In this document: positions 6,303 through 27,204 of the stretch, piece after piece
How the letters are laid out: every line of letters starts with the position of its first letter
Position numbering within the stretch: position 1 is the stretch's first letter
Source: an uncultured Dehalococcoidaceae bacterium
GTDB taxonomy: Bacteria > Chloroflexota > Dehalococcoidia > Dehalococcoidales > RBG-16-60-22
DNA: 28,025 nt
Reading direction: 5' to 3'
NCBI GenBank assembly: GCA_964353385.1
Contig: CAYGVP010000001.1
Span: 1 to 28,025 of the forward strand
Translations under genes and position numbers: made by a program
Notes under the pieces: model-generated
Database searches by the model: none
What the model was told of the DNA's origin: nothing
Seen by the model: only the letters and a program-made list of their open reading frames with translations

Positions 6303-6368
6303 TTGTGATTTTTTTGTTATGTTAACATCGTTCTTTGTGATTAGATAGTTAACCCGGGATATTAAAGT
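6303..6368 (+). promoter_or_regulatory. Phased direct-repeat operator plus -10 upstream of first HTH gene
   Basis: TTGTGA 6303, TTGTTA 6314, (gap), TTGTGA 6335, TAGTTA 6346; TAAAGT at 6363 begins 11 bp after the last repeat. Confidence 0.55.
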
Positions 6369-6499
6369 AATATCAGAACTTTCGTTAATTCGGTTAATGC
6401 CGTGAAGAGCGTCAGGAATAATTTAACTTCAATAATCATAATAAGCCAGATAAATCAATCAATAGTAGCCTAAAGTAATTGACTTTAAGGAGGAATAAT

Positions 6500-6712
6500 A
6501 TGGAAAACGCATTGGAGAATCACTACCCGCAATATCTTACTACCGGGGCGGTAGCCCGGCACTGCGGCGTGAGTAAAGTTACCGTATTGAGGTGGATTGA
6601 AAAAGGCAATCTGGTTGCCTTCCGGCTGCCGAGCGGACAGAACCGAATACACAGAGATGAGTTCTTCAGTTTCGCAGAGAAACATAAAATTCCGCTGGGT
6701 AACGGTCACTAG
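6500..6712 (+). CDS. Small excisionase/BldC-like (MerR-type HTH_17) DNA-binding protein, copy 1
   Basis: YLTTGAVARHCGVSKVTVLRWIEKGNLVAFRLPSGQNRI; SD AGGAGG at 6488-6493 supports the ATG at 6500. Confidence 0.88.
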   Translation: MENALENHYPQYLTTGAVARHCGVSKVTVLRWIEKGNLVAFRLPSGQNRIHRDEFFSFAEKHKIPLGNGH

Positions 6713-6836
6713 TAACTCCCCGGGAAAACAAGTACAGTCAAGACTTCAACTCACATTTAAGAGTATCCAATCATCACACATTTTTTGGCAAAAATATATT
6801 CCGTTTTAAGGAAAAGCATATTTATCGCAAAACCTC

Positions 6837-6902
6837 TTGTGATTTATCTGTGAAGTTTTAGATTAACGTTGTGACCTGGTTGTGACAGCCCATTTATATA
6901 CT
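6837..6902 (+). promoter_or_regulatory. Phased direct-repeat operator plus -10 upstream of second HTH gene and pilin
   Basis: TTGTGA 6837, CTGTGA 6848, (weak site near 6858), TTGTGA 6869, TTGTGA 6880; TATACT at 6897 begins 11 bp after the last repeat. Confidence 0.7.
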
Positions 6903-6963
6903 CCAAATATAACAAGCATTGCAAACACCAAATTTATTGACAGTTCCGATTGTCTAGAAAAAC

Positions 6964-7227
6964 ATGGTTATGCGGAATGATGCAAAACAGGAGGTTACCT
7001 TGCTTAAAACAATCGAACAATTAAACCAGGAATACATATCAGTCGGTTTCATTGCGAAGCACTGCGGTGTGAGCAATACTACCGTTCTGCGGTGGATCGG
7101 CGCCGGGCAGATACCCGCCTTCCGCCTACCCGGCGGGCATTACCGGATAGGCAGAGAGGACTTATCTGAATTCCTAGCCAGGTACGGAATGCCTGCCGGC
7201 AATAAAACACATGAAAGCTATGAATAG
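6964..7227 (+). CDS. Small excisionase/BldC-like HTH_17 DNA-binding protein, copy 2
   Basis: YISVGFIAKHCGVSNTTVLRWIGAGQIPAFRLPGGHYRI; paralog of 6500-6712. The true start may be slightly downstream. Confidence 0.85.
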   Translation: MVMRNDAKQEVTLLKTIEQLNQEYISVGFIAKHCGVSNTTVLRWIGAGQIPAFRLPGGHYRIGREDLSEFLARYGMPAGNKTHESYE

Positions 7228-7317
7228 AACCGTGATTCGTACCTGCATTATTAATAATTAATGATAAGGAGCGTTATGAACAACAAAAATAATCAAAAAA
7301 TAACAGGAGGTTTTAAA

Positions 7318-7683
7318 ATGCGTAGATGTTTTAGGAAATTCCGCAAATTAGAAAAAGGTTTTACTCTTGTTGAACTGCTTATCGTCGTGGCGATACTGGG
7401 GGTATTGTCCGCCGTCGTCCTGCCTAACGTAATCGGGTTAGCCGATGAAGGGCAGGTTGAAGCCGCCAAGGCCGAATTCGTAACGGTGCAAACGGCGATG
7501 GATACGATGATGGCGAAAGCCCATATTACCACAGTTACAGCTACAGCGGCAACGGGTAATATGTCATCCTTCCCTATCGGACACCCACTGTATCCAAACT
7601 ATTTGAGAACAGCAAACACACAGGGTACTTATTCCTGCGATCCAACCGGTCTGGTTGAACAGGTAACTACCAGTTATGAATAA
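7318..7683 (+). CDS. pilA: Type IV major pilin (prepilin N-terminal cleavage/methylation motif)
   Basis: Basic 14-aa leader MRRCFRKFRKLEKG|FTLVELLIVVAILGVLSAVVLP with Glu5; SD AGGAGG before the ATG at 7318; mature protein 107 aa. Confidence 0.9.
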   Translation: MRRCFRKFRKLEKGFTLVELLIVVAILGVLSAVVLPNVIGLADEGQVEAAKAEFVTVQTAMDTMMAKAHITTVTATAATGNMSSFPIGHPLYPNYLRTANTQGTYSCDPTGLVEQVTTSYE

Positions 7684-7713
7684 TTAAGCATCTGGTTAAT
7701 AAATTGCTACAGA

Positions 7714-7735
7714 TTGCTAATTAATGCATTAGCAA
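7714..7735. promoter_or_regulatory. 8-6-8 palindrome between pilA and the PAS kinase
   Basis: TTGCTAAT-TAATGC-ATTAGCAA. Confidence 0.35.
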
Positions 7736-7787
7736 AACCTTCCGAGGAGCGGCTTGAGTTTATCAGGCAAGAGACAGGTGAAGGATA

Positions 7788-10700
7788 ATGAATATGAGCC
7801 CACAGCGAATACAAAAGCGGGGAAGTAATATTTCAAGTGCTACCACATCAGCCATTAAACGGATACAGAAGCACGGGAACGGTAGCAAATTAAGGCGGCA
7901 TGAACAGGTTGAAAGAGCGCTGCGAGAATCGGAGGAGAAGTTCAGGAACCTGTTCGATAATGCCAGAGATATGATTGTCCTGGTCGATACAGAAACCGGA
8001 ACAATACTGGATATAAACACGGCCGGATGCAACCTGCTGGGTCTGCCTAAGGAAAAAATAATAGGTAGACACCAGAGTGAACTTCATCCTCCGGAACTTG
8101 CCGATAAGTATAAGCGACTCTTTCAGGACCATGTTCAAAGAGGGGGTAATGTCAACGATTATATCGTCGTCCAGAGGGCTGACGGCGCACAGATACCTAT
8201 GGACGTTTCCGCCAGCGCCGCGAAGCTGGCAGATAAAACAATTATTCAGGGGATTTTCCGCGATGTTACCGAACGCGCGAGGATAGAGAAGACTTTACAA
8301 GAATCGGAGGAAAAGTTCTCTAAGGCTTTCCATGCCAGCCCGGAAGCGATAGGCATTGTCACAGAAAAAGACGGAAAATTTATCGATGTAAATGAAAGTT
8401 ATGTACGGATGACCGGCTACTCCAGGGAAGAATTGATAGGCACCACTACAAACACACATAACTGGGTGAGACCAGAAGACCACACTAAAATGCAAAAGAT
8501 AATGCAGGAACAGGGCAGGATTTACAACGAAGAATTTGACTACCGTACGAAATCAGGCGAAATCCGCACGAGGCTGTTTTCGATAGAAACTATCACCATA
8601 AATGGCGAGCTGTGCAGAATCGGCGTTTCGACAGATATCACCGAGCGGAAGCGGGCGGAGGAAGCACTACAGAAAGAGCGGGCTTTCCTTAGCAGCATTC
8701 TCACCGGCATTCAGGACGGCATTACCGTCCTCGATAATAAGCTCAATATTATCAGTGCGAACAAAACAGCGGAAAAGTGGTTCGCACATGGTATGCCACT
8801 TATCGGCAAAAAGTGTTATGAGGCTTGTCACAACCGGAGCAAGCCGTGTGAAGCCTGCCCCACAATGCAGACTCTAGAGACTGGCAAAGCTGCCAATCAA
8901 GTTGTCCCCAGACATAGTCCTGATGGCATGATTACCGGCTGGTCTGAACTTCATACTTTTCCAATCTTCGATACGCAGAAAGGGGAAATAACCGGCATTA
9001 TAGAATATGGGCGCGATGTTACCGCGCGGAAGCAGGCGGAGGAGGCTTTACGAGAATCGGAGGAAAAGTTCTCCAAGGCATTCCATGCCATCCCCGAGGC
9101 CGTCGCCATTTGCACCCTGAAAGACGGCATATTCCTTGAAGTGAACGATAGCTTTATCTCCTTCAACGAATATACCCGTGAAGAGGTAATCGGGCATGAA
9201 ACCAAAGAGTTAAATATCTGGGTAAATCCCGGCGACCGCTACCGGATAAAACAGCTAGTGGAGAAACGCGGCCATTTTGAAAATGAAGAGTTTTTATTCC
9301 GGAGCAAATCAGGCGAGATGCGTAACGTTTTACTATCGGCCGATGTGATTAATTTCGGCGGTAAACCCTGTATGCTGACCATCGGCAATGACATTACCAA
9401 GCGGAAGAAAATGGAAAATGCTTTAAAAGAGTCTGAGGAAAAGTTCTCCAAGGCTTTCCATGCCAGCCCGGAAGCGATTGCCATTGCCACAGCAAAAGAC
9501 GAAAAGCTTATCGATATAAATGAAAGTTATACGCAGATAACCGGCTACTCCAGGGAAGAATTGATAGGCAACACTTCAACCTCCGTGCATATCTGGGCAA
9601 GCCCTGAAGACCACACTAAAATGCGCAAGATGATGCAGCAACAGGGCAGGATTTACAACGAAGAATTTGACTACCGTACGAAATCAGGCGAAATCCGCAC
9701 GAGGCTGTTTTCGCTGGAACCTATCACCATAAATGGAGAGCCGTGCACAATCGGCGTTTCGATAGATATCACCGAGCGTAAGATGATGGAAAACGCATTA
9801 AGAGAAAGGGAGAAGAGGTTTAGCGATATCGCCTTGAACACTCTAGAGTGGATTTGGGAGGTTGATGTTAATGGGAAATACACTTACTCGAGTCCTGTTG
9901 TTGAAAAGATTCTGGGGTATAAACCCGAGGAAATACTTGAGAAATACTTTTATTCCTTTTTCCTTCCTGAAGAGCGGGAGGAATTAAAGAAAGCAGCGCT
10001 TGAAGTATTTGCCCAAAAACAGCCGTTCAATGGATTCATCAACCGTAACATACACAAAAACGGTAAAACAGTCGACTTTTTGACAAGTGGGGTCCCCATA
10101 ATTGATAAGGATGGAAATCTCCTCGGATACAGAGGCGTAGATACCGATATCACCGAACGCAAGGCAATGGAACGGGTAATAAGAGAATCGGAGGAAAAGT
10201 TTTCTAAGGCTTTCCATGCCATACCTGAACAGGTCACTATAGTCAGAATGAAAGACGGCATATTCATCGACGTTAATGAAAGTTTCTGCCGCAATAACGG
10301 GTACACCCGCGAAGAAGTAATCGGCCGTAAAAGGGAGGAATTAAATCTCTTAATAGGTCAAAGCCAGCGGGAACAGTTTATGAAAATAGTAAAAGAACAA
10401 GGCCACGCTGAGAATATCGAACTTGAATGCAGGGACAAATCAGGCGAAACACGTACACTATTGTTTTCCTCCGATATTATCAACCTCGGCGGTGAGCCCT
10501 GTCAATTGACTATCGTCAATGACATTACCAAGCGGAAGCAAGGAGAGCAAAAACTGCAACAGGCCATGGCCGAACTGGAATCATCCGGCGCCAAACTACA
10601 GGCTACCAACAAAGAACTGGAGAGTTTCAGTTACTCTGTTTCCCACGACCTGCGGTCGCCTTTGAGGAGCATTGACGGCTTCAGCCAAGCGTTGCTGGAA

Positions 10701-11273
10701 GACTATTTGGATAGACTTGATGAAAAAGGCCAGGACTATTTACACCGCTTACGCAGTGCCAGCCAGAAAATGGGCGAACTGATTGACGGTCTGCTTAAGC
10801 TATCCCGCCTGACAAGATGGGAAATGCACCATGAGAAAGTGGATTTAAGTTCGCTCGCGAATGAGATTGCCGCCAGGCTCCAGGAAACAAATCCGGAGCG
10901 CAACGTTAAGTTCATCATAGGCAGCGACCTGAAAGCTAACGGCGACCCGCAGATGTTGAGAGTCCTGGTGGAAAACCTATTCGGCAACGCCTTTAAGTTT
11001 ACAAAAAATACAAAACAAGCCCTTGTAGAGTTCGGCAGTATTACCGAAGGTGAAAGAAAAACCTTTTTTATTAAGGATAACGGCGCCGGATTCGATATGG
11101 CTTTCAAAGATAAACTTTTTGGCGCCTTCCAGCGCCTTCACGATGCGGCTGAATTTCCCGGCACCGGTATCGGTTTAGCCACGGTGCAGCGGATTATTAA
11201 TCGGCACGGCGGCAGCATCCGCGCGGAAGGAGCGGTAGGAGAGGGAGCTATTTTCTATTTTTCTCTAAATTAA
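7788..11273 (+). CDS. Cytoplasmic multi-PAS (7 PAS/PAC) sensor histidine kinase, Cph1/BphP-type transmitter
   Basis: Repeated (S)EEKF...D(I/V)TERK PAS units; H-box ELESFSYSVSHDLRSPL; N-box ENLFGNAFKF; DNGAGF; GTGIGL; no TM segment seen. Confidence 0.95.
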   Translation: MNMSPQRIQKRGSNISSATTSAIKRIQKHGNGSKLRRHEQVERALRESEEKFRNLFDNARDMIVLVDTETGTILDINTAGCNLLGLPKEKIIGRHQSELHPPELADKYKRLFQDHVQRGGNVNDYIVVQRADGAQIPMDVSASAAKLADKTIIQGIFRDVTERARIEKTLQESEEKFSKAFHASPEAIGIVTEKDGKFIDVNESYVRMTGYSREELIGTTTNTHNWVRPEDHTKMQKIMQEQGRIYNEEFDYRTKSGEIRTRLFSIETITINGELCRIGVSTDITERKRAEEALQKERAFLSSILTGIQDGITVLDNKLNIISANKTAEKWFAHGMPLIGKKCYEACHNRSKPCEACPTMQTLETGKAANQVVPRHSPDGMITGWSELHTFPIFDTQKGEITGIIEYGRDVTARKQAEEALRESEEKFSKAFHAIPEAVAICTLKDGIFLEVNDSFISFNEYTREEVIGHETKELNIWVNPGDRYRIKQLVEKRGHFENEEFLFRSKSGEMRNVLLSADVINFGGKPCMLTIGNDITKRKKMENALKESEEKFSKAFHASPEAIAIATAKDEKLIDINESYTQITGYSREELIGNTSTSVHIWASPEDHTKMRKMMQQQGRIYNEEFDYRTKSGEIRTRLFSLEPITINGEPCTIGVSIDITERKMMENALREREKRFSDIALNTLEWIWEVDVNGKYTYSSPVVEKILGYKPEEILEKYFYSFFLPEEREELKKAALEVFAQKQPFNGFINRNIHKNGKTVDFLTSGVPIIDKDGNLLGYRGVDTDITERKAMERVIRESEEKFSKAFHAIPEQVTIVRMKDGIFIDVNESFCRNNGYTREEVIGRKREELNLLIGQSQREQFMKIVKEQGHAENIELECRDKSGETRTLLFSSDIINLGGEPCQLTIVNDITKRKQGEQKLQQAMAELESSGAKLQATNKELESFSYSVSHDLRSPLRSIDGFSQALLEDYLDRLDEKGQDYLHRLRSASQKMGELIDGLLKLSRLTRWEMHHEKVDLSSLANEIAARLQETNPERNVKFIIGSDLKANGDPQMLRVLVENLFGNAFKFTKNTKQALVEFGSITEGERKTFFIKDNGAGFDMAFKDKLFGAFQRLHDAAEFPGTGIGLATVQRIINRHGGSIRAEGAVGEGAIFYFSLN
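8301..9782 (+). repeat. Intragenic duplication of a PAS module (8301-8650 vs 9429-9782)
   Basis: 8509-8582 is identical to 9640-9713 (74 bp); the flanks are highly similar, with a one-codon indel. Confidence 0.9.
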
Positions 11274-11278
11274 GGAGT

Positions 11279-11740
11279 ATGAAGATGACTACAGCAATGA
11301 ATGAAACAATTTTACTCGTGGAGGACAACCCGGACGACATCGAACTGACAAAGCGGGCATTCGGCAAAAACAACATCGCCAATAACCTGGTGGTTGCCCG
11401 CGACGGCGTCGAGGCTCTGGACTATCTTTTTTGCCGGGGTATCTACGCCGAGAGAAATATTAAAGATATACCGCGGCTGATTCTCCTGGATTTGAAATTG
11501 CCCAAGATGGATGGCCTGCAAGTGCTGGAATGCCTGCGTGCCGAAGAGCACACCAAGCTGGTGCCTACAGTAATCCTGACCTCTTCAAGAGAGGAGCAGG
11601 ACTTGATCAGCGGCTACAAGTACGGAGCCAATAGTTACGTTCGTAAGCCGATTAATTTTAACGAATTCGTTGATGCAGTACGGAATATCGGGCTCTACTG
11701 GCTGCTGATAAACGAGCCGCCGCCGGACAACCACCATTGA
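11279..11740 (+). CDS. Rcp1-like single-domain response regulator
   Basis: ILLVEDNPDDIEL, LILLDLKLPKMDG, VILTSS.EE.D, GANSYVRKP. SD spacing favours the ATG at 11285 as the start. Confidence 0.93.
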   Translation: MKMTTAMNETILLVEDNPDDIELTKRAFGKNNIANNLVVARDGVEALDYLFCRGIYAERNIKDIPRLILLDLKLPKMDGLQVLECLRAEEHTKLVPTVILTSSREEQDLISGYKYGANSYVRKPINFNEFVDAVRNIGLYWLLINEPPPDNHH

Positions 11741-11771
11741 TTACCCGAGTAATTAAATTTTATTAGTACCG

Positions 11772-14471
11772 ATGAAGGTGAGCAGCATGGAAAATAAAAG
11801 AATATCCGTCCTATTAATAGAAGATAGCATCGACGATGCTGAGTTGATTAAGAGGAAACTGGAGAAATCTATTAGTACCAGATTCCAGGTCACAATAGCG
11901 CGTAAGCTTGAGGACGGGCTGAAACAGGCGGAAATAAATGAGCCGGACCTGATTGTCTCCGACCTGGGATTACCGGACAGCCACGGACTCGATACAGTTA
12001 CGAAAATTCTTCTGGCGGTGCCGCACGTACCACTGGTGGTGTTAAGCGGTTTTGATGACGAAGAAACTGGCATCAAGGCGGTGCAATCCGGGGCGCAGGA
12101 CTATCTGGTGAAAGGGCGACTGGACGACGCTCAACTGGAACGGCCTATCTATTATTCCATCGAGCGAGCACGGTTACAGCACGAACTGGAACAGAACTCA
12201 CAGGAAATTTCCAAGCTGCAAGTCAATTTATTTAAAATCCTGGAGAATAGCACCGATGCAACAGTTGTAGTTGGCGAAAATGGCAGTATACTTTTTACCA
12301 ATCCTGCAGTCGAATCTCTTTTCGGGCAGAAGCAAAAAGAACTATTGAACCAGTCGTTCCAGTATCCGCTGGTAGGCGGAAAGACATCAGAGATTGAAAT
12401 TTACCGAACCGATGGTAAGAAAAACATTGCCGAAATGAATGTTGTGAATATCTCCTGGGAAGGCAGGCCGGCATGCCTGGTTTCCATGCACAACATTACA
12501 AAACGCAAGGCAATGGAAGAAGCCCTGCGGACAAGCGAGGAAAAATACCGCAATATCGTTGAACTATCCCATGAAGGGATTATCATAACAAATCTCCAGG
12601 GAGTAATCACGTCATGTAACATGACTTTCTTAAGCATGATTGGGTTGCCCCAAGAGGAAGTTGCGGGGAAACACTTTCAGGATATCCCGAATATAAATAT
12701 CAAAGACCTTCCTACCTACATAAAGATGTTCGCGTCTCTTTTACAGGGTAAGAAAAATCCACCGCTGGAAATATCATGGAAAATTGACAACGGGCCAGCC
12801 GGAATATTCGAGCTTAAGTCTAACTTGATGAAATCGAACGGTGATATCTTCGGGGTTCAGACAATCGTTACCGATATAACCGAGCGGAAGCGGGCGGAGA
12901 AGGCTTTACAAGAATCAGAGGAAAAGTTCTCTAAGGCTTTCCTCAACAGCCCGGAGTCAATCGTCATTTCCGATATAGATGACGAAGTTATTATTGAAGC
13001 CAACGACACGTTTTTGCGTTTTTCCGGCTATACCCGTGAAGAAATTATCGGCAAAAAGGCGAGCGAGCTTAATACCTGGGCTAATCCGGAAGAACGCGCC
13101 GAAGTAATAAAGATACTAAAGCAGGAGGGAGTAGTCCGTAACAGAGAATGCCATTTCCGTATGAAATCTGGAGAGAAAAGTATACAGCTTTTTTCCGCGG
13201 AAATCATTAATATAGGCGACCGGCCGTGTATGCTCTCGGTAACTACTGATATAACCGAACGTAAGAAAATGGAGGAAGACCTGAAACAAAGCGAGGAAAA
13301 GTACCGAGAGCTTATCAATACCTCTATCGATGCCATTATCTCCGCGGACCCAAAGATGAGAGTCACCATTTGGAACCATGGGGCAGAGAAAATCTTTGGA
13401 TATACAGAAAAAGAGATGATGGGGCAATCAGTGTTAAAAATAGTCTCCGAAACATACGGAAAAGGGATGGTCGAAGGCTTCGGTCATCTCCATAAAACAG
13501 GCTCGAGCGCGGTATCGGAGAAAATAACAGAAACCATCGCTATTAGAAAAAATGGTACCCAAGTACCCATTGAATTATCAATATCAACCAGAAAAGCCGG
13601 CGATACCTATATTGCCACGGCAATTATCAGAGATATTACCGCGCGTAAAGAGGCGGAGGAAAAGCTGCGAAAAATCGACCAGATGAAAACCGAGTTTCTG
13701 TCTAACGTATCCCACGAACTGCGCACGCCGCTGCAATCCATCAGCGGCTTTACTAAATTGATTATGACCGGCAAGGTGCCCGACTCCGCCACCCAGCAGG
13801 AATTTCTCCAGATTATCGATACAGAGATTTCCCATCTGGGTAATCTAATCAACAGTCTGCTGGATATGTCGCGGCTGGAATCCGGGCGATTTCAAATTTA
13901 CAAGAAGAACGTATCAATGCGCGATATCATCATTGACTGCATGAAGACATTACATGGTCTCGCCCGCGAGAAGAATATTACTCTAAGTGAAAACCTGCCG
14001 AAGCAATTGCCTGAAATGGAAGCTGATAATGAAAGAGTGCGGCAGGTAATCCTTAACCTGGTTGGTAACGCAATTAAATTCAGCGACCACGGCGGGAGCG
14101 TTAATATCAAGGTGACGGAGCAAAATAGCGAGTTATTGTTCCAGGTTATAGACAACGGCACTGGAATAAAGAAAGAGGCTATGCCCCATCTTTTCGAGAG
14201 ATTTTACCGCGCCGAGGGGGAAACGGTAAAAGGCGGTACGGGGTTGGGACTTTATATATCCAAGCAAATTATTGATGCACACAGAGGGCAAATCTGGGCA
14301 GAAAGCAAATACGGCGAGGGGAGTACTTTCAGCTTTACCCTGCCCTTTAACAACAAAGGAGGAGAAAAACATGGGAAAGAAAATTCTAATAATCGAAGAC
14401 GATCCGGCAACGCAAAGACTGGTAGATTACTCGCTAAAGCAGGAGGGGTACCAGATAATCACGGCCTCTAA
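11772..14471 (+). CDS. Hybrid kinase: N-terminal REC, 4 PAS, HisKA, HATPase
   Basis: VLLIEDSIDD..LIVSDLGLPDS.G..GAQDYLVK; H-box FLSNVSHELRTPL; NLVGNAIKFS; DNGTGI; GTGLGL. The tail reads through into the next gene. Confidence 0.93.
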   Translation: MKVSSMENKRISVLLIEDSIDDAELIKRKLEKSISTRFQVTIARKLEDGLKQAEINEPDLIVSDLGLPDSHGLDTVTKILLAVPHVPLVVLSGFDDEETGIKAVQSGAQDYLVKGRLDDAQLERPIYYSIERARLQHELEQNSQEISKLQVNLFKILENSTDATVVVGENGSILFTNPAVESLFGQKQKELLNQSFQYPLVGGKTSEIEIYRTDGKKNIAEMNVVNISWEGRPACLVSMHNITKRKAMEEALRTSEEKYRNIVELSHEGIIITNLQGVITSCNMTFLSMIGLPQEEVAGKHFQDIPNINIKDLPTYIKMFASLLQGKKNPPLEISWKIDNGPAGIFELKSNLMKSNGDIFGVQTIVTDITERKRAEKALQESEEKFSKAFLNSPESIVISDIDDEVIIEANDTFLRFSGYTREEIIGKKASELNTWANPEERAEVIKILKQEGVVRNRECHFRMKSGEKSIQLFSAEIINIGDRPCMLSVTTDITERKKMEEDLKQSEEKYRELINTSIDAIISADPKMRVTIWNHGAEKIFGYTEKEMMGQSVLKIVSETYGKGMVEGFGHLHKTGSSAVSEKITETIAIRKNGTQVPIELSISTRKAGDTYIATAIIRDITARKEAEEKLRKIDQMKTEFLSNVSHELRTPLQSISGFTKLIMTGKVPDSATQQEFLQIIDTEISHLGNLINSLLDMSRLESGRFQIYKKNVSMRDIIIDCMKTLHGLAREKNITLSENLPKQLPEMEADNERVRQVILNLVGNAIKFSDHGGSVNIKVTEQNSELLFQVIDNGTGIKKEAMPHLFERFYRAEGETVKGGTGLGLYISKQIIDAHRGQIWAESKYGEGSTFSFTLPFNNKGGEKHGKENSNNRRRSGNAKTGRLLAKAGGVPDNHGL

Positions 14472-14778: not shown

Positions 14779-14787
14779 GGAAAAGGC

Positions 14788-16473: not shown

Positions 16474-16483
16474 CGAGGGTAAG

Positions 16484-17698: not shown

Positions 17699-18105
17699 TG
17701 ATAAAGGTAAAAAAAGAGATGACGAAAGCAACACGGCCTCGAACTCAATTGAATAGCCAGCAAGGCATCGGCCTGGTGGAAACACTGGTGGCCGTCGCGA
17801 TTCTGGGAACTTCAGTGGTGGCTTTTATAGTATCCCTTTCGGCAGGTTCGCTTACGGTAAACGAACTCAACCGGGAAACCATAGCGCAGAGTCTGGCGCA
17901 GACACAGATGGAATACACGAAAAATTACGCCTTTATCCCCGGCGCCGTAACTTATCCTGTATTAGCTGCCCCGGCTACCTACAGTGTATCGGTCGATGTG
18001 CTTGACGTACCCAGTACCGATACAAACATACAGAAGATAACGGTAACCGTCCAGAAGGATAGCGCAAATATCCTTGCGGTTTCCAATTACAAGGTGAAAA
18101 GATGA
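17698..18105 (+). CDS. Minor type IV pilin (PilV-like)
   Basis: QQG|IGLVETLVAVAILG with Glu5; C-terminal IQKITVTV. Alternative start at 17719. Confidence 0.85.
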   Translation: MIKVKKEMTKATRPRTQLNSQQGIGLVETLVAVAILGTSVVAFIVSLSAGSLTVNELNRETIAQSLAQTQMEYTKNYAFIPGAVTYPVLAAPATYSVSVDVLDVPSTDTNIQKITVTVQKDSANILAVSNYKVKR

Positions 18106-18554
18106 AAAGCCAAGCGGGCGCAACTATGGTAGAACTGATTACAGCCGTAGCTATAACCGGCATAATCGTCGCTTTTTTAGGTACGGCTATCTACCACATT
18201 ATTACCGTTTCTGAATACGGCAATGACGAGTTCACCGCTTTGCATGAGCTGCAAAACGCTGCCTACTGGTTTAGCAAGGACGGGCAAGAAGCGAAAGCAG
18301 CCGTCGGGGGCAGCCAACTCGTGCTGACGCTGACCGATAATTCCACGGTCACCTACACGCTGGTCGGTTCCAATTTACAACGTACTGCCGCTGGTCAGCA
18401 GATAATCCTGGCACGCAATATAAGCCGCGCTGATTTTTCAGTAAACAACCGCCTGGCGACAATGAGTCTGATTTCTGCCCCTCCCGGGAGGAATAATGTG
18501 AGCGAGAACGGAACATATATGATTAATTTAAGGCCGATTGAGGTGGAAAAATGA
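18102..18554 (+). CDS. Minor type IV pilin (PilW/GspJ-like)
   Basis: MKSQAG|ATMVELITAVAITGII with Glu5; YTLVGSNLQR beta region. Confidence 0.85.
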   Translation: MKSQAGATMVELITAVAITGIIVAFLGTAIYHIITVSEYGNDEFTALHELQNAAYWFSKDGQEAKAAVGGSQLVLTLTDNSTVTYTLVGSNLQRTAAGQQIILARNISRADFSVNNRLATMSLISAPPGRNNVSENGTYMINLRPIEVEK

Positions 18555-20065
18555 ACGGCGAAAAGGGGCAAGCCCTGCCTTTAGCCATCATGGCGCTTAC
18601 CATAGGCACACTGCTAATTGCGCCATTCCTGGGGCATGCCGGCAGCAGTATCATCGGGTCCAGGACATATGGCGAAGCTATAGACTACCGGAACGCTTGC
18701 GATGCAGGAGTGGAGCACGCCATCTGGAGTCTCTTTTATGACGAGCTGGGAGACCTGATACCCAATCCCGGTGACCAGATTACCTATCAATTACCGGAGA
18801 CAGTCAATGGTGTAACAACTTCCGTTACAATAACCTCTAACGCAAGCGGCGGCGGGGATATAGGGAGCATCAATAAAACCGTTATAGACAGATTCGATTT
18901 TGATGGGGCATACTGCAATACGCCTGATATGATACATGTCTCCGGCAATATTTACGCTATAGCTTATAATGGACCAGCTAACGATGGATTCGTCAAGACA
19001 GTGGAAATAGCCCTGGATGGAAGCATCACCAACAGCGCTATCGATACGCTGGAGTTCGATACGAGCGATTGTTATAATCCCAATATTATTTTCGTATCTA
19101 ACAATATTTACGCTATTGCTTACAGAGGGCCGAGCAACGACGGCTTTATCAAGACGGTATCTATTGCCTCCAATGGCGACATAGGCAACAGCGTTATCGA
19201 CACTCTTGAGTTTGATACCAGCGACTGCTACGAACCGGATATTACCTTTGTATCCGGCATATATTACGCTATCGCTTATAGGGGACCAGCTAGCGACGGC
19301 TTTCTTAAGACGGTAACGATAGCCGCCAATGGCGATATAAGCAATGCCGCCATCGACACATTGGAGTTTGACCCCAGCAATTGCTACGAACCGGATATCA
19401 TCTACATATCCCCGACATATTTTGCGATTGCATATCGGGGCGTAAGCAACGACGGCTTCCTGAAGACAGTGACCATTGCTGCTAATGGCGATATAGGCAA
19501 TAGCGTTATCGACACTCTGGAATTCGATACCAGCGACGGAGCTTACCCCTATATCATGAATATTTCCGGGAACACCTATGCCATAGTGTATACAGGCTCG
19601 AGTTCCGACGGTTTTATCAAAACGATGACAATTTCTGGTGTCGGTGATATATCCAACAGCGTTATCAGCAGCTTCGAATTCGACCCCGCCAACGGGCAGG
19701 AGCCTCAAATAATCCATATCGTAGGGAATACTTTTGCTATAGCCTATGACGGTCCCCAGAATGACGGATACCTGATAACCCTGCCGATAGAACCAAACGG
19801 CACCATTCCCGGTACGATAACCGATACCTTTGAATACGACACCAGCAACGGATATTTTCCGGATATCGTCGCTATCTCGGAAGGAATCGTCGCAATCGCT
19901 TATGACATCCCATCATCAAGGGGAAAGCTGGTTACTATTGGTGTTAATACCATTAGCGCCTTTAATGCTTATCGAATTAGAGTCACCGCCGGCGATACCG
20001 CTATTCAAGCCAGTGTAGTTACTGATAATACTTCAACATATATAACTGCCTGGCAGGTGCAATAA
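18551..20065 (+). CDS. Large PilX/GspK-like minor pilin with an inserted 52-aa repeat (predicted beta-propeller) domain
   Basis: MNGEKG|QALPLAIMALTIG (no Glu5, as in PilX/GspK), DAGVEHAIW, six full and two half repeats, C-terminal YRIRVTAG..IQASV..ITAW. Confidence 0.85.
   Translation: MNGEKGQALPLAIMALTIGTLLIAPFLGHAGSSIIGSRTYGEAIDYRNACDAGVEHAIWSLFYDELGDLIPNPGDQITYQLPETVNGVTTSVTITSNASGGGDIGSINKTVIDRFDFDGAYCNTPDMIHVSGNIYAIAYNGPANDGFVKTVEIALDGSITNSAIDTLEFDTSDCYNPNIIFVSNNIYAIAYRGPSNDGFIKTVSIASNGDIGNSVIDTLEFDTSDCYEPDITFVSGIYYAIAYRGPASDGFLKTVTIAANGDISNAAIDTLEFDPSNCYEPDIIYISPTYFAIAYRGVSNDGFLKTVTIAANGDIGNSVIDTLEFDTSDGAYPYIMNISGNTYAIVYTGSSSDGFIKTMTISGVGDISNSVISSFEFDPANGQEPQIIHIVGNTFAIAYDGPQNDGYLITLPIEPNGTIPGTITDTFEYDTSNGYFPDIVAISEGIVAIAYDIPSSRGKLVTIGVNTISAFNAYRIRVTAGDTAIQASVVTDNTSTYITAWQVQ
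18863..19945 (+). repeat. 156-bp/52-aa tandem coding repeats
   Basis: Consensus (I/Y/T)YAIAYxGPxNDGFxKTVxIAxNGDIxNSxIDTLEFDTSDCYEPDIxxVSxx; full copies span 18950-19885. Confidence 0.92.
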
Positions 20066-20100
20066 GAGATGCGAGGAAAAAACTTGTTTAAGAGAGATTT

Positions 20101-20664
20101 ATGAAAAAACGCGGAGCACTCATCATCATATTAATATTAGCGCTGCTGGTGGTCTATTATATTTTCGGCATGGATTACCTGAAGCAGCGGAACCAGAAAG
20201 AAAACCTGAAGGCTCAGATTTCTGAAGATACGGCGACGCTGTCTTTAATTCCCCTACCGCCTGCTGACCTCGAGCAGCAACTGGCTGACGCTGAAGATAG
20301 CCTGTGGGCAATAAAAGACACTTTGAAGATAGATACGAATATTACCCGAATCGTCAACGGCATTCTTAGATTGGGAAACGAGACCGGGGTCAAGGCGATA
20401 CCGCTATCAACGCAACCCTGGGTAATCGAGCATATTTCAAATCAGGACTACTCGGTTTTTCGCATTGACATAGCGATTACCGGAAACTTTACGCAAATGG
20501 CCGAGTTTTTAAAGCGCCTGGAAAACGGCGAACCTGAAACGCTTGTCCTTGAGTATTCGAAGGTCGAAAAAGCACCCGGCTCTTTCCTATCTGAAAGCCC
20601 GGGCGAAGGACCAATAAGCGCTAATATCAGACTAGCCATTTACACTCTACCTGTTATTGGTTGA
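20101..20664 (+). CDS. PilO-like pilus alignment protein
   Basis: N-terminal TM, coiled coil, then VFRIDIAITGNFTQMAEFLKRLE (PilO/GspM ferredoxin-like fold motif). Confidence 0.75.
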   Translation: MKKRGALIIILILALLVVYYIFGMDYLKQRNQKENLKAQISEDTATLSLIPLPPADLEQQLADAEDSLWAIKDTLKIDTNITRIVNGILRLGNETGVKAIPLSTQPWVIEHISNQDYSVFRIDIAITGNFTQMAEFLKRLENGEPETLVLEYSKVEKAPGSFLSESPGEGPISANIRLAIYTLPVIG

Positions 20665-20686
20665 TGGGAAAGGCTGAAATAAAAAT

Positions 20687-22198
20687 ATGTATGTCGCACT
20701 AAATATAAGCAGCCATAACATCAAATTACTATCGATGAAAGGTCGCCGGGTAGGAACATGGGCAACAGCCGACCTCGCTGAAGGCCTGGTGCATGACGGC
20801 CTGATTACGCAGCCCGAAGCTGTTGGAGAGGCGATAAATTCATTATTCAAGTCGACCGGGATACGGAAAAACAACGTTATTGTGAGCGTCGCGGGGTTAT
20901 CCTTTACCTACCGGTTTATCAGCCTGCCACGTATAAAACCCGCGTTACTTGAGGAAGCTCTCTTACGTGCCGCGAAAAAAGAGATATCTTTGCCTTTAGA
21001 AGAACTCTATATCTCGTGGAAACCGATACATAGCAAGGGTGAGGAGCAGGAATATTTTATCATCGGCGTGCCGCGTAATCTGGTCGATGCCACTGTTCAG
21101 ACTTTAAAAATAGCAAATGTGGAGCCTTACCTCATGGACGTGCGGCCGCTGGCTCTAGCGCGGGCAGCTCACCAGAACGATGCAATCGTTGTCAATATGG
21201 AGCCCGATTGTTTTGATATTGTCTTCATCACACAGGGTTTACCGACAGTAATACACACGATAAGCCCGAGGAGTGACGGAGCTACGATAGAAGATAATAT
21301 CCACCGCCTGGCGGACGAATTAACGAAAACGGCCGCCTTTTACCAAAGCAATCACCCTGATATACAACTGAATGGGTCGCTTCCTTTATTGCTTGCCGGA
21401 GAACTGGCAGCCGATACAAGAACCAGCCAGATGCTTCAATCTGAAATTGAATACCCGATCGAACCACTGATTCCACCGGTAGAATTTCCTGATAGATTAC
21501 CAATCGCTTCTTATGCCACCAATATCGGGCTGGCTACCAAAAGAACACCGTTAAAGTCACTTGACCACGGTAGTGTGTCACGCTTTTTTGATATTGATGT
21601 AAATATCTTAGAGGGGAAATACCGTAAGCCTAAAGCCAAACCTATCCCAATAAAGAACTGGTTATTGACATCTCTTCTTATAGCGGTTATCGCATGTCTA
21701 TTCCCGCTTTATCAGGCCAAGAGTCAAATAGCTGTAGAAAACAGCTCGCTGGAAGCAGCTTTGGATAACATTTACCGCGAACTTAATCTGGCAACCCTGG
21801 TAAACGCAGAAACCATGTTGACCCAGGGAAAAATCAGCGAGACTAATGCAATGGCTGAATCTCTAGAAACCACCAATAAGAATATTTTCAGCGTCAGGGG
21901 CAATTTCGATACGGGATTACAGAAGGTCACCCGGGACATGCCGCTAAACACCTCATTTACATCAATAGAAATCAAAAAAGATGTTATTGTAATTAAGGGA
22001 GAAACAGATAGCGTTTTTACGGTAATCGAATATGCGAAGGCATTGGAGGCCGAGGGCGTATTTACCCAAGTTCGTATTACAGACCTGGATGAAACATATA
22101 TTGCAGTTCCCGGGACAGAAGAAACCGAGGAGCCTTCTTTGCTTCAAGTGTATATTATTACATTCGAAATCCAAGCACAATTACCGCTACCTGAATAA
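20687..22198 (+). CDS. PilM-PilN fusion protein
   Basis: N-terminal PilM/actin-like region (LNISSHNIKLL, DVRPLALARA, LLAGE), TM WLLTSLLIAVIACLFPLY, coiled coil, and PilN-like C-terminus (MPLNTSFTSIEIKKDVIVIKGET..EYAKALE..FTQV). Confidence 0.8.
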   Translation: MYVALNISSHNIKLLSMKGRRVGTWATADLAEGLVHDGLITQPEAVGEAINSLFKSTGIRKNNVIVSVAGLSFTYRFISLPRIKPALLEEALLRAAKKEISLPLEELYISWKPIHSKGEEQEYFIIGVPRNLVDATVQTLKIANVEPYLMDVRPLALARAAHQNDAIVVNMEPDCFDIVFITQGLPTVIHTISPRSDGATIEDNIHRLADELTKTAAFYQSNHPDIQLNGSLPLLLAGELAADTRTSQMLQSEIEYPIEPLIPPVEFPDRLPIASYATNIGLATKRTPLKSLDHGSVSRFFDIDVNILEGKYRKPKAKPIPIKNWLLTSLLIAVIACLFPLYQAKSQIAVENSSLEAALDNIYRELNLATLVNAETMLTQGKISETNAMAESLETTNKNIFSVRGNFDTGLQKVTRDMPLNTSFTSIEIKKDVIVIKGETDSVFTVIEYAKALEAEGVFTQVRITDLDETYIAVPGTEETEEPSLLQVYIITFEIQAQLPLPE

Positions 22199-22210
22199 GG
22201 AGATAACCAG

Positions 22211-23284
22211 ATGCACATCAACGACCTGTTAAAGCTGGCTACAAAACGGAACGCTTCTGACCTGCATTTGAAGGTTGGCAATTATCCCGTTTTGCGCATT
22301 AATGGAGAACTCATATTACAGAAAGATTCAACCATAATCACACCGAAGGATATGGATATCATCTTCAATGAAGTAACTACCGAGACGCAAAGAGAAACAT
22401 ACGCCAGAGAACTAGAAGCGGATTTCGCTTATCAGGCTCAAGACGTCGGCCGCTTCCGTATCAATATCTCCCAGCAGGAAGGAACGATAAGTCTGACCTG
22501 CCGTCCGATCAGAGTGGAATTACCGACCATAGAAGACCTGGGACTGCCAGAAACATGCAAAACACTTGCCTTAAAGAGTAATGGCCTGGTAATAGTAACC
22601 GGGCCTACCGGCTGCGGTAAGTCGACGACCCTCGCCGCTATGATAAACTACCTCAACCATACTGTCAGTCGCAAGATTATCACTATCACAGACCCGATAG
22701 AATACTTGCATCATGATATCAAGTGCATCATTTCCCAGCGAGAAATTGGCCGAGATACCCGGTCTTTCGCCAATGCTTTAAAACACGCCATGCGTCAAGA
22801 CCCCGATGTCATAATGGTAGGAGAAATGCGAGACCTTGAGACAATGGCGACCGTACTTACCGCGGCGGAGACCGGACACCTGGTATTGACAACGCTTCAT
22901 ACACTGGGCGCGGCGGAGGCGATTGACCGTTTCATAGATGTTTTTCCGCCGCACCAGCAACAGCAGGTGCGCATTCAGTTATCCATCGTACTCGAAGGAG
23001 TTATTTACCAGCTATTAGTACCTCGCGCCGATAATTCAGGACGTTTGCCTGCCGTTGAAGTAATGCTGGCATTACCTGCCATCAAGAATCTCATACGCGA
23101 AGGGAAAACGTACCAGATGATGAACACTATACAAACGGGAACACAGTATGGCATGCAAACCCTGAACCAATCGCTGGCCGATCTCTGTAAAAGAGGGATA
23201 ATAACCTGCGAACAGGCTATGACCAGGAGCAGTGATACCGAAGAACTATCCGAGATGCTCGGTAGACAGATAGCACATCACTAA
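22211..23284 (+). CDS. pilT: Type IV pilus retraction ATPase PilT
   Basis: ASDLHL, GPTGCGKSTTLAAMI, QREIG.DT.SF..AL..AMRQDPDVIMVGEMRD.ET, AAETGHLVLTTLHT, AIKNLIRE (AIRNLIRE motif), GMQT. Confidence 0.93.
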   Translation: MHINDLLKLATKRNASDLHLKVGNYPVLRINGELILQKDSTIITPKDMDIIFNEVTTETQRETYARELEADFAYQAQDVGRFRINISQQEGTISLTCRPIRVELPTIEDLGLPETCKTLALKSNGLVIVTGPTGCGKSTTLAAMINYLNHTVSRKIITITDPIEYLHHDIKCIISQREIGRDTRSFANALKHAMRQDPDVIMVGEMRDLETMATVLTAAETGHLVLTTLHTLGAAEAIDRFIDVFPPHQQQQVRIQLSIVLEGVIYQLLVPRADNSGRLPAVEVMLALPAIKNLIREGKTYQMMNTIQTGTQYGMQTLNQSLADLCKRGIITCEQAMTRSSDTEELSEMLGRQIAHH

Positions 23285-23335
23285 TTATTCTTGGATACTT
23301 CGGGGTTTATTATTTTATTGAGGGAGGCATGAATT

Positions 23336-24046
23336 ATGGAAGTAATCAGACACAAGGAAATGAACAAAATAAATAACAAACTTCTATCAGCAGTCTCCCA
23401 TGAGTTACGTGCCCCGCTGGCGGCGATCAAGGGCTACTCAACGATGTTACTCGACTATTTACCCAAGCTTACGGCTGAAGAAACCAAGGAATATATTCAA
23501 TCTATAGATAATGCCACGGACAGGATGACCCGGCTCGTTGATGACCTTATGGACACGTCACATCTGGAGGAAGGAAGGCTCAACCTGGAAAAAACCCCAG
23601 TTGATATGGAAATCCTTATCAAAGCAACTGTTAAAGAAGCCGAAACCAGAACCAACCATCATGAAATCTTAACAGCGCTGAACCATAATTTGCCCAGAGT
23701 AAACATCGACCCAAAACGTATCCAGCAAGCGCTGGATAATCTAATCGATAATGCTGCCAGACTATCACCTCAAGGGACAGAAATTTTAATATCAGCGACC
23801 GCTGATGATAAAGAACTAGAGATAGGCGTTATCAGCGGCGACCCGGGCATACCTGACAGCGAGTTTTGCAGTATTCCCGAACTTATGTGTAGAATGGGTA
23901 AAACAACCTCACCGAGAGATAACGGCATGAATCTAGAATTATATATTTGCCAGCGGCTGATTGAAGCTCATGGCGGTCGAATATGGGCAGAGAGTATCTT
24001 AGGGAAAGGAACCAGTATTAAATTTACACTTCCATTAACTTCGTAA
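23336..24046 (+). CDS. Sensor-less histidine kinase-like protein with intact H-box but degenerate ATP-binding domain
   Basis: VSHELRAPLAAIKG; N-box DNLIDNA; G1 reads SGDPGI, F box IPELMCR, G2 GMNLEL; AHGGRIWAES..GKGT retained. Confidence 0.85.
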   Translation: MEVIRHKEMNKINNKLLSAVSHELRAPLAAIKGYSTMLLDYLPKLTAEETKEYIQSIDNATDRMTRLVDDLMDTSHLEEGRLNLEKTPVDMEILIKATVKEAETRTNHHEILTALNHNLPRVNIDPKRIQQALDNLIDNAARLSPQGTEILISATADDKELEIGVISGDPGIPDSEFCSIPELMCRMGKTTSPRDNGMNLELYICQRLIEAHGGRIWAESILGKGTSIKFTLPLTS

Positions 24047-24097
24047 AAAGTGTTAAAATATCGTCTTGCATATATTTTAAAACATGCCAAATTGGTT

Positions 24098-24103
24098 TAT
24101 AAT
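24098..24103 (+). promoter_or_regulatory. -10 element upstream of the OmpR-family regulator
   Basis: Perfect TATAAT in an AT-rich intergenic region; the -35 is weak (TTTTAA at 17 bp). Confidence 0.4.
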
Positions 24104-24145
24104 GTTTGATTGGAAGGTAGAACAGAGCAAAAACAGAGGGTTTAT

Positions 24146-24844
24146 ATGCCAAAAAAGAAAGCTCTAATACTGGTAGTGGATGATGACATCCGCATGTTGC
24201 GCATGATGAAGCGTATGCTGGAGCTGGAAGGTTTTGAAGCTACCACGGCTAACTGCGGCGAAGCTGCCTTAAAAACATTTGAAAAAGAAACCCCTGCGCT
24301 CGTGCTGCTTGATATTATGATGCCGGACATGGATGGATATGTAGTATGCCGACGTATTAGAGAGTTCTCCCAAGTCCCGATTATTATGGTTACCGCCAGA
24401 GGCGAAGATAAAGAAAAGGTGGAGGGCTTAAATATAGGCGCCGATGATTACGTTACCAAACCTTTTTCCGCCAGTGAACTGGCTGCCCGCGTCCGGGCGG
24501 TTCTGCGGCGTGTTAGCAGCCAAGAAATAACTCAAGAAGCTGTTTTTCGCTACAAGGATATGGTAATCGATTTTACATCACGGCGGGTTTTAGTTAATAA
24601 CCAGGAATTAAAATTAACCTCAACCGAATATAAGATGCTGTCTTACATCTCGCTTAACGCCGGGCGCGTGGTCACGCCGGACCAGCTATTGAACAAGGTC
24701 TGGGGTGAGGAATATGTTGGCGCGGCACACCTGCTCCAGGTAAATATCGCCAGATTGAGGAAAAAACTGGGCGATGATGCCAAGAAACCTGACTATATCC
24801 AGACCCGCCCGGGTATCGGATATATCATGTCAAAACTGCCTTAA
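24146..24844 (+). CDS. OmpR/PhoB-family (KdpE-like) response regulator
   Basis: ILVVDDD, LVLLDIMMPDMDG, GADDYVTKPF..EL.ARV; winged helix LTSTEYKML..GRVVT..LL..VWG..V.IARLRKKL..YI.T.PGIGY. Start set at the ATG at 24146. Confidence 0.95.
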   Translation: MPKKKALILVVDDDIRMLRMMKRMLELEGFEATTANCGEAALKTFEKETPALVLLDIMMPDMDGYVVCRRIREFSQVPIIMVTARGEDKEKVEGLNIGADDYVTKPFSASELAARVRAVLRRVSSQEITQEAVFRYKDMVIDFTSRRVLVNNQELKLTSTEYKMLSYISLNAGRVVTPDQLLNKVWGEEYVGAAHLLQVNIARLRKKLGDDAKKPDYIQTRPGIGYIMSKLP

Positions 24845-24886
24845 ACCGGTGCCCGTCATCCCCCCTGAATCATTAGACCCCCCCCA

Positions 24887-24920
24887 AGGTCTTCATGAAA
24901 ACGGAAGACCTCTCTTTATT
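24887..24920 (+). terminator. Probable intrinsic terminator after the OmpR-family gene
   Basis: 8-bp stem AGGTCTTC/GAAGACCT, 9-nt loop, followed by CTCTTTATT. Confidence 0.5.
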
Positions 24921-25027
24921 TCCGCTATGTAATGCCGCTGTTTCCGCGTATTTTACCTGTCAAAAACTCCCTACATATTTGCCATCCAAAGGCTACCGGC
25001 ATACCCATTTAGATATAATTGATTTTA

Positions 25028-25082
25028 ATGTGTTAGATTATGTCCTTTTTGTGATACCTGCGTGATATCCACTATATAAATT
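25028..25082 (+). promoter_or_regulatory. Phased direct-repeat operator plus -10 upstream of the Ubl-membrane gene
   Basis: ATGTGT 25028 (weak), TTGTGA 25049, GCGTGA 25060; TAAATT at 25077 begins 11 bp after the last repeat. Confidence 0.5.
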
Positions 25083-25190
25083 AACAATAGGGTAGATGGA
25101 GGGTTCTATTTACTTGAGGTGTAACTATTCTTAATAGGGACAAATTAACACAAGAGTATAACTTTACCCTCGGCTAGAACTGAAAAACAC

Positions 25191-25955
25191 ATGATAGAAA
25201 TTAAATTTAAAAACAACCGTGAAGAAGCAAATATAGCCGGGCGTTCCATCGCGGAAGCACGGGGGTTATATCAATCGGAGTTTGGCATCGCGGAAAAAGC
25301 CGTCGCCGTATTGAACGGCGAGAAAATCGGCTCCGCCGCGGAAGCTTTTGCTATCCTGATGGATGACGATAATCTGGTATTCAAAACAGTAAAAGGCAAC
25401 AAAGCAATGTACCTAGTCGGCGCACTACTGCTGACAATGGCTGCCACCGTCGGGTTGTTCGCCTCCGGGTACACTAACGCTACGGCTACGATTAATGCAG
25501 GAATAGCAGACTATGATTTCGCCTTAGTTACGGCCAACACATCAAGTATACCTTCATGGACCGCTCACGGGTTGCAGAAAAATTCCACCGGTTCCGGTAC
25601 CCTCTTCGATATTAATACTCAAACATCAGGTTATACCGGCGATATCATCGCTACTATTTCTCTGGCTAATGTCGACTCTCTCATCAAGGTCTACCGCAAT
25701 CTGACGCTATCCATAGAGGTCCGGGATTCTTTAAACAATCTGATGGATATTAATAGCGACAATATTTCAGATATTAACGACTATACTCTCCTGACGCTGG
25801 AAAACAGCGTGGTGTCATTATATATCGAGCAAAACGCCGCGAGTATATATACCGTTAAACTCAGGAGCGGCTACTATATCTGCAACATCGCTCAAAGCAA
25901 CTGGTCCAGCACTGATGGGACACCATTACTGTACTGTGAAGTTGCCCAGAGGTAA
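25191..25955 (+). CDS. Hypothetical protein: N-terminal ubiquitin-like (beta-grasp) domain, TM/signal helix, extracellular beta-rich domain
   Basis: aa 1-69 IEIKF..AGRSIAEAR..F.I..AVAVLNGEK..L.DDD.LVF..KG; aa 73-93 hydrophobic; Thr/Asn/Ser-rich beta-type remainder. The SD is weak. Confidence 0.7.
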   Translation: MIEIKFKNNREEANIAGRSIAEARGLYQSEFGIAEKAVAVLNGEKIGSAAEAFAILMDDDNLVFKTVKGNKAMYLVGALLLTMAATVGLFASGYTNATATINAGIADYDFALVTANTSSIPSWTAHGLQKNSTGSGTLFDINTQTSGYTGDIIATISLANVDSLIKVYRNLTLSIEVRDSLNNLMDINSDNISDINDYTLLTLENSVVSLYIEQNAASIYTVKLRSGYYICNIAQSNWSSTDGTPLLYCEVAQR

Positions 25956-26032
25956 TTTCTCCCTTCTTAAGACGGACGGGCAATATCTCACCATCTTTTT
26001 ATCTTAACGTCAATCCTGTCTAATTGATACCC

Positions 26033-26098
26033 TTGTGATGTTTTTGTGAGGTATTGTGAGATGTTTTTGATAACTTTGTGAGTCTATTTGAGTATTGT
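26033..26098 (+). promoter_or_regulatory. Five-unit phased TTGTGA array plus -10
   Basis: TTGTGA 26033, 26044, 26054; TTTTGA 26065; TTGTGA 26076; TATTGT at 26093 begins 11 bp after the last repeat. Confidence 0.75.
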
Positions 26099-27139: not shown

Positions 27140-27204
27140 ATCGTGGATAAAAAGCGAGGCTTGATTTTTTGTTTTAGATACTGTATATTGATAGGACAAT
27201 TGAA

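Follow-up and report, generated by a model that had tools for sequence, protein, structure and literature searches.

Class II activation of transcription from direct repeats is a textbook mechanism, and response regulators of the OmpR/PhoB family typically use direct repeats of the TGTnA type that recur every 11 bp. At the pho box of Escherichia coli PhoB, such half-sites form direct repeats that take the place of the −35 box, and Bacillus subtilis PhoP requires two dimers on four direct repeats at activated promoters. Here, we examined a stretch of 28,025 nucleotides from an uncultured Dehalococcoidaceae bacterium (contig CAYGVP010000001.1 of assembly GCA_964353385.1, referred to as the window), which carries a type IV pilus locus and four arrays of TTGTGA-like direct repeats, termed P1 to P4. 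A sequence-only reading of the window had proposed that one shared element of pho-box geometry ties together two small helix-turn-helix (HTH) genes with the pilin gene pilA, the gene at 25191, and an operon encoding a small protein and a receiver. Conserved orthologous promoters, an independently trained position weight matrix (PWM), and recurrence of the arrays across the class support that proposal.

Several described systems share parts of this geometry. The Salmonella PhoP box in direct orientation lies 12 nt 5′ of the −10 box, overlaps the −35 position, and activates by class II contact; it is active at 12, 23, and 33 nt and inactive at 7, 17, and 28 nt, meaning that only integral helical turns are tolerated (PMC3335776). 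The arrays resemble the E. coli pho box and architecture I of Salmonella PhoP in their 11-bp direct repeats and in TGTnA-type half-sites that point to the −10 box, and also in that these boxes replace the −35 box, end 10–12 bp before the −10 box, and keep strict helical phase. They differ in their constant pair of boxes, offset by 32 bp and leaving one turn free, in the recognition helix of their putative regulator (QVNIARLR instead of the usual VDVHIRRLR type), and in their targets, which here are pilus, signaling, and small DNA-binding protein genes. For MtrA of Mycobacterium and Corynebacterium, the best-contributing bases are TTGTTA-N5-TTGTGA, which are the half-sites and spacing of the arrays (PMC10609481). 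However, a fixed promoter geometry and a 2+2 layout are not described for MtrA in that paper, and the window lacks an MtrB-LpqB context. Streptomyces BldC assembles into cooperative multimers on direct repeats spaced by one helical turn, its repeat being AATTXXXX(C) and contiguous (PMC5859096); the likeness here lies in the small MerR-like HTH proteins without an effector domain that are encoded right behind arrays.

Layout and geometry of the four arrays

All repeat and −10 coordinates given in the sequence-only reading were correct when the sequence was re-read. Exact TTGTGA hexamers begin at 6303, 6335, 6837, 6869, 6880, 25049, 26033, 26044, 26054, and 26076; TTGTTA at 6314, TAGTTA at 6346, CTGTGA at 6848, and TTTTGA at 26065 carry one mismatch, and GCGTGA at 25060 carries two. 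The array repeats are all direct and in one orientation, with a period of about 11 bp and the consensus tTGTGAy. The helical phasing that had been claimed held up, but the repeats do not form a free run. Instead, the unit is a set of four TTGTGA-like direct repeats at 0, +11, +32, and +43, followed by 11 bp and then a TAnnnT hexamer, a 2+2 layout in which one helical turn is skipped between the pairs.

P1 (6303–6368, + strand) comprises the repeats at 6303, 6314, 6335, and 6346 with the −10 box TAAAGT (6363–6368), and P2 (6837–6902, + strand) those at 6837, 6848, 6869, and 6880 with TATACT (6897–6902). Both have a PWM score of 56.0, and their predicted starts lie near 6375 and 6909, respectively. 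P4 (26033–26098, + strand), with repeats at 26033, 26044, 26065, and 26076 and the −10 box TATTGT (26093–26098), scores 62.2 and has a predicted start near 26105. An extra TTGTGA at 26054–26059 fills the skipped turn of P4 to give five contiguous repeats, and its position is not conserved in relatives; save for this extra repeat, the arrays differ in their skipped turn from the sites of B. subtilis PhoP, where the four repeats are contiguous. P3 (25017–25082, + strand) is the weakest site (17/24 by simple matching, PWM score 30.4): its upstream repeats, AATTGA at 25017 and ATGTGT at 25028, are weak, and TTGTGA at 25049 and GCGTGA at 25060 precede TAAATT (25077–25082), with a predicted start near 25089. 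Its homologue at the equivalent place in relatives is a clean array that lies upstream of a gene for a 176–199-aa signal-peptide protein.

As had been claimed, the gap between the last repeat and TAnnnT is exactly 11 bp in all four regions; TAnnnT also stands at offset 11 in 89 of 93 distinct, partly non-independent array sequences from relatives, with every other offset reaching 8 at most. A sigma-70 consensus scan called no −35/−10 pair at any of the four −10 boxes, and across the 93 arrays a −35 box would have to fall in the columns between repeats 3 and 4, a spacer that varies, in agreement with the proposed lack of a canonical −35. The arrays thus have the features of class II, pho-box-type sites: direct repeats of about 11 bp in one orientation, a proximal box over the −35 position and 10–12 bp before the −10 box, and no −35 consensus. 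An invariant 11-bp gap and a single orientation are what a PhoP-type class II mechanism requires.

The same geometry bears on whether the repeats are some other signal. TTGTGA shares four of six bases with TTGACA, and a −35 element of an alternative sigma factor was one candidate, but sigma-70-type factors use 15–20 bp between the −35 and −10 boxes, and the repeat-to-−10 spacing of 11 or 22 bp falls outside that range; this candidate was rejected. The half-site of Rex is TTGTGA and that of CRP is TGTGA (PMC2883068). Because Rex and CRP sites are inverted repeats, whereas the array repeats are all direct, on one strand and with no inverted TCACA partner, Rex and CRP-FNR operators were rejected as well.

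An Rfam search of the four leaders returned no known RNA element. The P1 spacer between repeats 2 and 3 (6320–6334, 15 bp, TGTTAACATCGTT...) is strongly conserved in relatives, as are the first 20–40 nt past the −10 boxes of P1 and P2 (6369–6390 and 6903–6945), while other spacers drift. The conserved spacer and post −10 stretches may represent a second binding site or a leader element.

Recurrence in the genome, the order, and the class

The window is contig C1 of a genome (G000) of 1.57 Mb in 226 contigs, 70% complete and 48% G+C. This genome contains 388 TTGTGA hexamers on both strands, and 16 of the 18 same-strand pairs within 60 bp are spaced by 10, 11, 21, 22, 32, or 43 bp. When exact hexamers were compared with one-mismatch hexamers, spacings peaked at 11, 21, and 32 bp (14, 12, and 15 pairs, against about 3–4 at most other spacings). 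Scanning for the four-repeat layout (spacings of 10–11, 21–22, and 10–11 bp; cut-off of at least 19/24 matches) gave 10 genome matches, compared with a mean of 0.5 in ten Markov-2 simulated genomes, and eight off-phase spacing sets gave 0–3 matches on the real genome. The motif is therefore more frequent and more strictly phased than chance allows, as the sequence-only reading had assumed. These matches resolve into seven distinct sites, namely P1, P2, P4, and one site each on contigs C26, C32, C93, and C13, all seven with TAnnnT at offset 11. A PWM trained on arrays of other genomes only recovered exactly eight sites in the 1.57-Mb genome, these seven and P3, and on five simulated genomes it found no site scoring 10 or more. 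The bare pattern TTGTGA-N11-TAnnnT is weakly enriched genome-wide (11 occurrences at gap 11, against 3–10 at most gaps and 12–13 at gaps 21–22); the 11-bp rule applies to the last repeat of an array, and the bare pattern is informative only within arrays.

With these controls at hand, a reading of the repeats as lacking a regulatory role or as another signal altogether (chance in AT-rich DNA, remnants of promoter duplication, an alternative-sigma −35, or Rex/CRP-type operators) seems to us extremely improbable. P1 and P2 could indeed be a tandem duplication, but arrays are carried by unrelated genes. The simulated-genome nulls and off-phase controls speak against chance, as does a reversed-pattern control that gave 0 matches in 422 genome scans.

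Outside the window, the array on C26 lies upstream of a third gene of the HTH_17 family, followed by genes for a receiver and a PAS kinase. Those on C32 and C93 each lie upstream of a gene for a zinc-ribbon mini-protein, and that on C13 lies upstream of an alpha/beta hydrolase gene, whose orthologue in genome G012 also has an array. The proposal of a circuit linking both ends of the pilus locus is thus supported, but not its confinement to the locus, since there are at least four further sites elsewhere in the genome and arrays occur class-wide. In several families, arrays repeatedly precede genes for zinc-ribbon mini-proteins (about 56–65 aa, CxxC ... CxxC); such loci include C93 (about 5760–5930, − strand) and C32 (about 5780–5970, + strand) of this genome, G141:C8, and G012:C37. 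A two-repeat site on C106 (962) was dropped because it was missed by the PWM and lies on a foreign-looking contig. At 900–1000 of C106, three tandem GGTGTCACA units adjoin two TTGTGAC repeats; the contig has runs of N, and its long open reading frames (ORFs) look GC-rich by eye. It is probably foreign or mis-binned DNA outside the regulon.

The orthologues of P1, P2, P3, and P4 in more than 20 relatives differ in their spacers but retain both the repeats and the 11-bp gap. The P1 layout is kept in 10 or more relatives, P2 is conserved down to relatives of about 70% identity, and P4 is conserved 5′ of the orthologous gene in 18 relatives. We then scanned a sample of 121 genomes of the order and 301 of the class with a full-architecture pattern of 20 fixed bases, allowing up to 2 mismatches. 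It matched 19 of the 121 (about 12 families) and 26 of the 301, and the architecture also occurs in further orders of the class; the reversed form of this pattern is the control mentioned above. By this pattern, arrays were absent from the genomes of family f10, almost all of which are single-contig and 99–100% complete. By sequence comparison, the arrays mark a predicted regulon that is conserved, previously undescribed, wider than the pilus locus, and class-wide.

A candidate regulator of the OmpR/PhoB family

The sequence-only reading had named two classes of protein as possible binders, OmpR/PhoB activators and BldC-like HTH proteins. Synteny, co-occurrence, half-site type, and geometry favor the first, and we consider it likely that the arrays are bound by the OmpR/PhoB-family response regulator encoded at 24110–24844 (+ strand; PF00072, E 2.2e-32; PF00486, E 1.6e-24). 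Its translation has the receiver residues DDD24-26, D68, T95, and K117, corresponding to the acidic pocket, the phospho-accepting Asp, and the conserved Thr and Lys. The C-terminal part is a winged-helix Trans_reg_C domain, and the nearest solved structures are RegX3, KdpE, MtrA, and PhoP. Against the PhoB model TIGR02154 it reaches 207.9 bits, below the cut-off of 296.2, and no pst or pho genes were found among the array targets examined; MtrA is its second-best family model, at 217.5 bits and below the 300-bit cut-off. Judged by these family-model scores, the regulator is not PhoB, MtrA, or another named equivalog. Its recognition helix, HLLQVNIARLRKK, is common to the orthologue group (HLLQVNIARLR) and is unlike those of the two alignable paralogues of this genome and of lower-identity homologues elsewhere (VDVHIRxLR, LRVHIQHLR, and LRAYIRHLR).

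An array lies about 60–310 bp 3′ of the regulator orthologue in G138, G081, G116, G099, G078, G043, G142, G057, the window's own family, and G185, which belongs to another order; an array directly 3′ of the orthologue occurs in at least eight families. The gap between the orthologue and the array often holds a terminator-like hairpin, and several of these arrays are followed by genes for a small protein and a single-domain receiver. In G037, an array is also found 5′ of a regulator orthologue. The orthologue was found in 15 of the array-positive genomes of the order sample (19 in total); stated incompleteness would predict about 2.9 absences, against 4 observed. Helix and half-site also covary: in G116, TGTCA repeats accompany the helix QANIARLR, and in family f95 the helix QVAVARLR is paired with TGAGA/TGTGA repeats. 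Homologues of the regulator in Anaerolineae (about 47% identical) have no arrays within 3.5 kb.

Family f95 (G427:C156, G306:C19, and G389:C8; L199, L200, and L203) encodes the regulator in tandem duplicate, with QVAVARLR as its helix. Its members have many arrays, with up to 13 pattern matches, in which repeats 1 and 3 are often TGAGA and repeats 2 and 4 TGTGA. This alternation could reflect heterodimers.

Several observations weigh against assigning the arrays to this regulator. The compared genomes are kin, so the counts above overstate independence, and the covariation consists of two events only. No regulator orthologue was found in the array-bearing genomes G025, G088, and G141 (87, 84, and 67% complete), where the arrays lie 5′ of HTH_17 genes, nor in G097 (92% complete), where the array is truncated at a contig end. 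Arrays are very often 5′ of HTH_17 genes, which would also fit HTH_17 autoregulation. The genome encodes three other OmpR-family regulators. The RNA evidence consists of two short contigs of a relative in one metatranscriptome run, covering part of the second HTH gene and pilA, and these do not amount to start-site information.

Some of these points suit a different binder, the HTH_17 (excisionase/MerR-like, BldC-like) proteins themselves, which would bind the repeats head-to-tail and auto- and cross-regulate the array genes. Arrays stand 5′ of three of the seven HTH_17 genes in this genome and of many HTH_17 genes of other families, and the cooperative multimers of BldC on repeats one turn apart would offer a precedent for such binding. 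The contiguous BldC site is, however, unlike TTGTGA in a 2+2 layout, and the HTH_17 proteins score 28.0 and 31.8 bits against a cut-off of 77 for the BldC family (NF033787). The response regulator also matches the phylogenetic profile of the arrays more closely. Of the 19 array-positive genomes in the order sample, only 8 yielded the HTH_17 subfamily, and in G099 (98% complete) no such HTH was found at E 0.01, yet an array adjoins the regulator gene. None of 12 HTH_17-domain loci checked in G099, G037, and family f37 had an array. Two HTH_17 subfamilies of different sequence would also need the same half-site, and a fixed 11-bp distance to the −10 box in place of a −35 is a signature of the PhoB/PhoP type, not a known mode of MerR-like action. 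We therefore think it unlikely that HTH_17 proteins read the arrays; their genes appear to be frequent array targets, and the proteins the weaker rival binder.

A further alternative is that the arrays are read by a different factor, be it an as yet unrecognized protein or any of the genome's three remaining OmpR-family regulators. The half-site type is common in the OmpR family, four Trans_reg_C proteins are encoded in a genome only 70% complete, and a distance of 2 kb separates an array in G088 from another OmpR-type regulator. Yet the two aligned paralogues have different recognition helices, conserved synteny with arrays is confined to the QVNIARLR group, and in the cultured-type genomes of family f10 the paralogues are present and the arrays absent. 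On this evidence, we judge a different factor to be improbable.

A far-reaching extension of the regulator assignment can also be put forward, as a speculation that we regard as possible though doubtful. In this view, the arrays would define a master regulon that spans the class, in which a new OmpR/PhoB subfamily, marked by a QVNIARLR-type helix, would act on cell-surface and pilus genes by way of a two-tier cascade. Directly controlled genes would mainly encode mini DNA-binding proteins, from two HTH_17 subfamilies and the zinc-ribbon group, serving as second-level regulators or as co-factors on the same promoters, and the tandem regulators of family f95 would read TGAGA/TGTGA as heterodimers.

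The pilus locus and the proposed circuit

The closest named relatives of the window are metagenome-assembled genomes of uncultured Dehalococcoidia/Dehalococcoidales, and the stretch occurs mostly in sediment metagenomes. Gene order was assigned by Pfam matches, and the genes from 6500 to 26806 are on the + strand. Behind P1 lies the first small HTH_17 (excisionase/MerR-like) gene (6500–6712; PF12728, E 2.4e-10), whose ORF runs from 6479 and whose likely start is the ATG at 6500, with GGAGG upstream. P2 precedes the second HTH_17 gene (6964–7227; PF12728, E 1.7e-11), for which TTG at 7000, also with GGAGG upstream, is an alternative start. The pilA-like pilin gene (7261–7683; N_methyl motif, E 8.2e-9) follows 33 bp downstream, an arrangement that is syntenic in relatives. 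Because the gap is this short and a terminator scan called none within it, pilA is probably co-transcribed with the second HTH gene from P2. Signaling and type IV pilus genes occupy 7788–23284 and encode PAS histidine kinases, receivers, PilB, PilC, minor pilins, PilO, PilM-PilN, and PilT.

The regulator gene is preceded by that of a histidine kinase with HisKA and HATPase_c domains only (23336–24046), and this kinase-regulator pair is syntenic in relatives. The kinase has neither a sensor nor a membrane part, and the signal probably reaches it from the upstream PAS kinases and hybrid kinase; it is the presumed phosphodonor of the regulator. A terminator-like hairpin read from the sequence (24888–24923, + strand; 7-bp stem, 9-nt loop, T-rich tail) closes the regulator operon. 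Equivalent hairpins stand 3′ of the regulator gene in relatives. The terminator scan tool did not call the hairpin, presumably because its loop exceeds 8 nt.

P3 is followed by a gene for a 254-aa protein (25191–25955) with no family match and an internal hydrophobic helix. At this position, relatives (L022–L036) have instead the signal-peptide protein of 176–199 aa, which is also an array target in G057. An unrelated protein behind a degraded array suggests a gene replacement in this genome. The operon of P4 (26122–26806) encodes a small protein of unknown family (ATG 26122, ORF from 26095, end 26367) and a single-domain receiver (26384–26806), and the module of regulator, array, small protein, and receiver is found again in other families. 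Farther downstream, a cobalamin riboswitch (27199–27347, + strand; Rfam RF00174, 50.7 bits) lies just 5′ of a periplasmic binding protein gene (27404 onward, PF01497).

From this arrangement, we infer that each array is an activator-dependent promoter, with the four repeats on one face of the helix forming two dimer sites. The proximal pair, at about −40 to −24, would occupy the place of the −35 box and end 11 bp before TAnnnT, a position from which the regulator, once bound, would make class II contact with RNA polymerase and so recruit it, like PhoB and PhoP; the distal pair would add cooperative binding. The regulator at 24110–24844 would be phosphorylated via the adjacent sensor-less kinase and the upstream PAS kinases. 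In its active form, it would switch on both small HTH genes and, with the second one, pilA; the output of P2 would probably also include the pilus/signaling operon that ends in the regulator's own gene, giving positive feedback. It would likewise switch on the gene at 25191, the small-protein/receiver operon, and at least four loci elsewhere, namely the third HTH_17 operon with its receiver and PAS kinase, the two zinc-ribbon mini-protein genes, and the alpha/beta hydrolase gene.

Pilus regulators such as PilS-PilR are of the NtrC/sigma-54 type. The gene order and promoters described here point to a pilus cluster that is probably under an OmpR-type two-component switch with positive feedback. 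Full-text literature searches found no paper on type IV pilus regulation in Dehalococcoidia, and a literature search on ResD with TTGTGAA gave no usable result. The classical pho-box-type grammar was already known; the regulator subfamily and the regulon are new, and they use this grammar with a fixed two-box layout. Next to nothing is known of how transcription is controlled in uncultured Dehalococcoidia, and our analysis provides a precise promoter grammar together with a candidate regulator that has an unusual recognition helix. It also provides a first list of the predicted regulon, which covers pilin and signaling operons along with secreted proteins and small proteins of the HTH and zinc-ribbon types. 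Promoter and operon annotation in hundreds of metagenome-assembled genomes can draw on this grammar.

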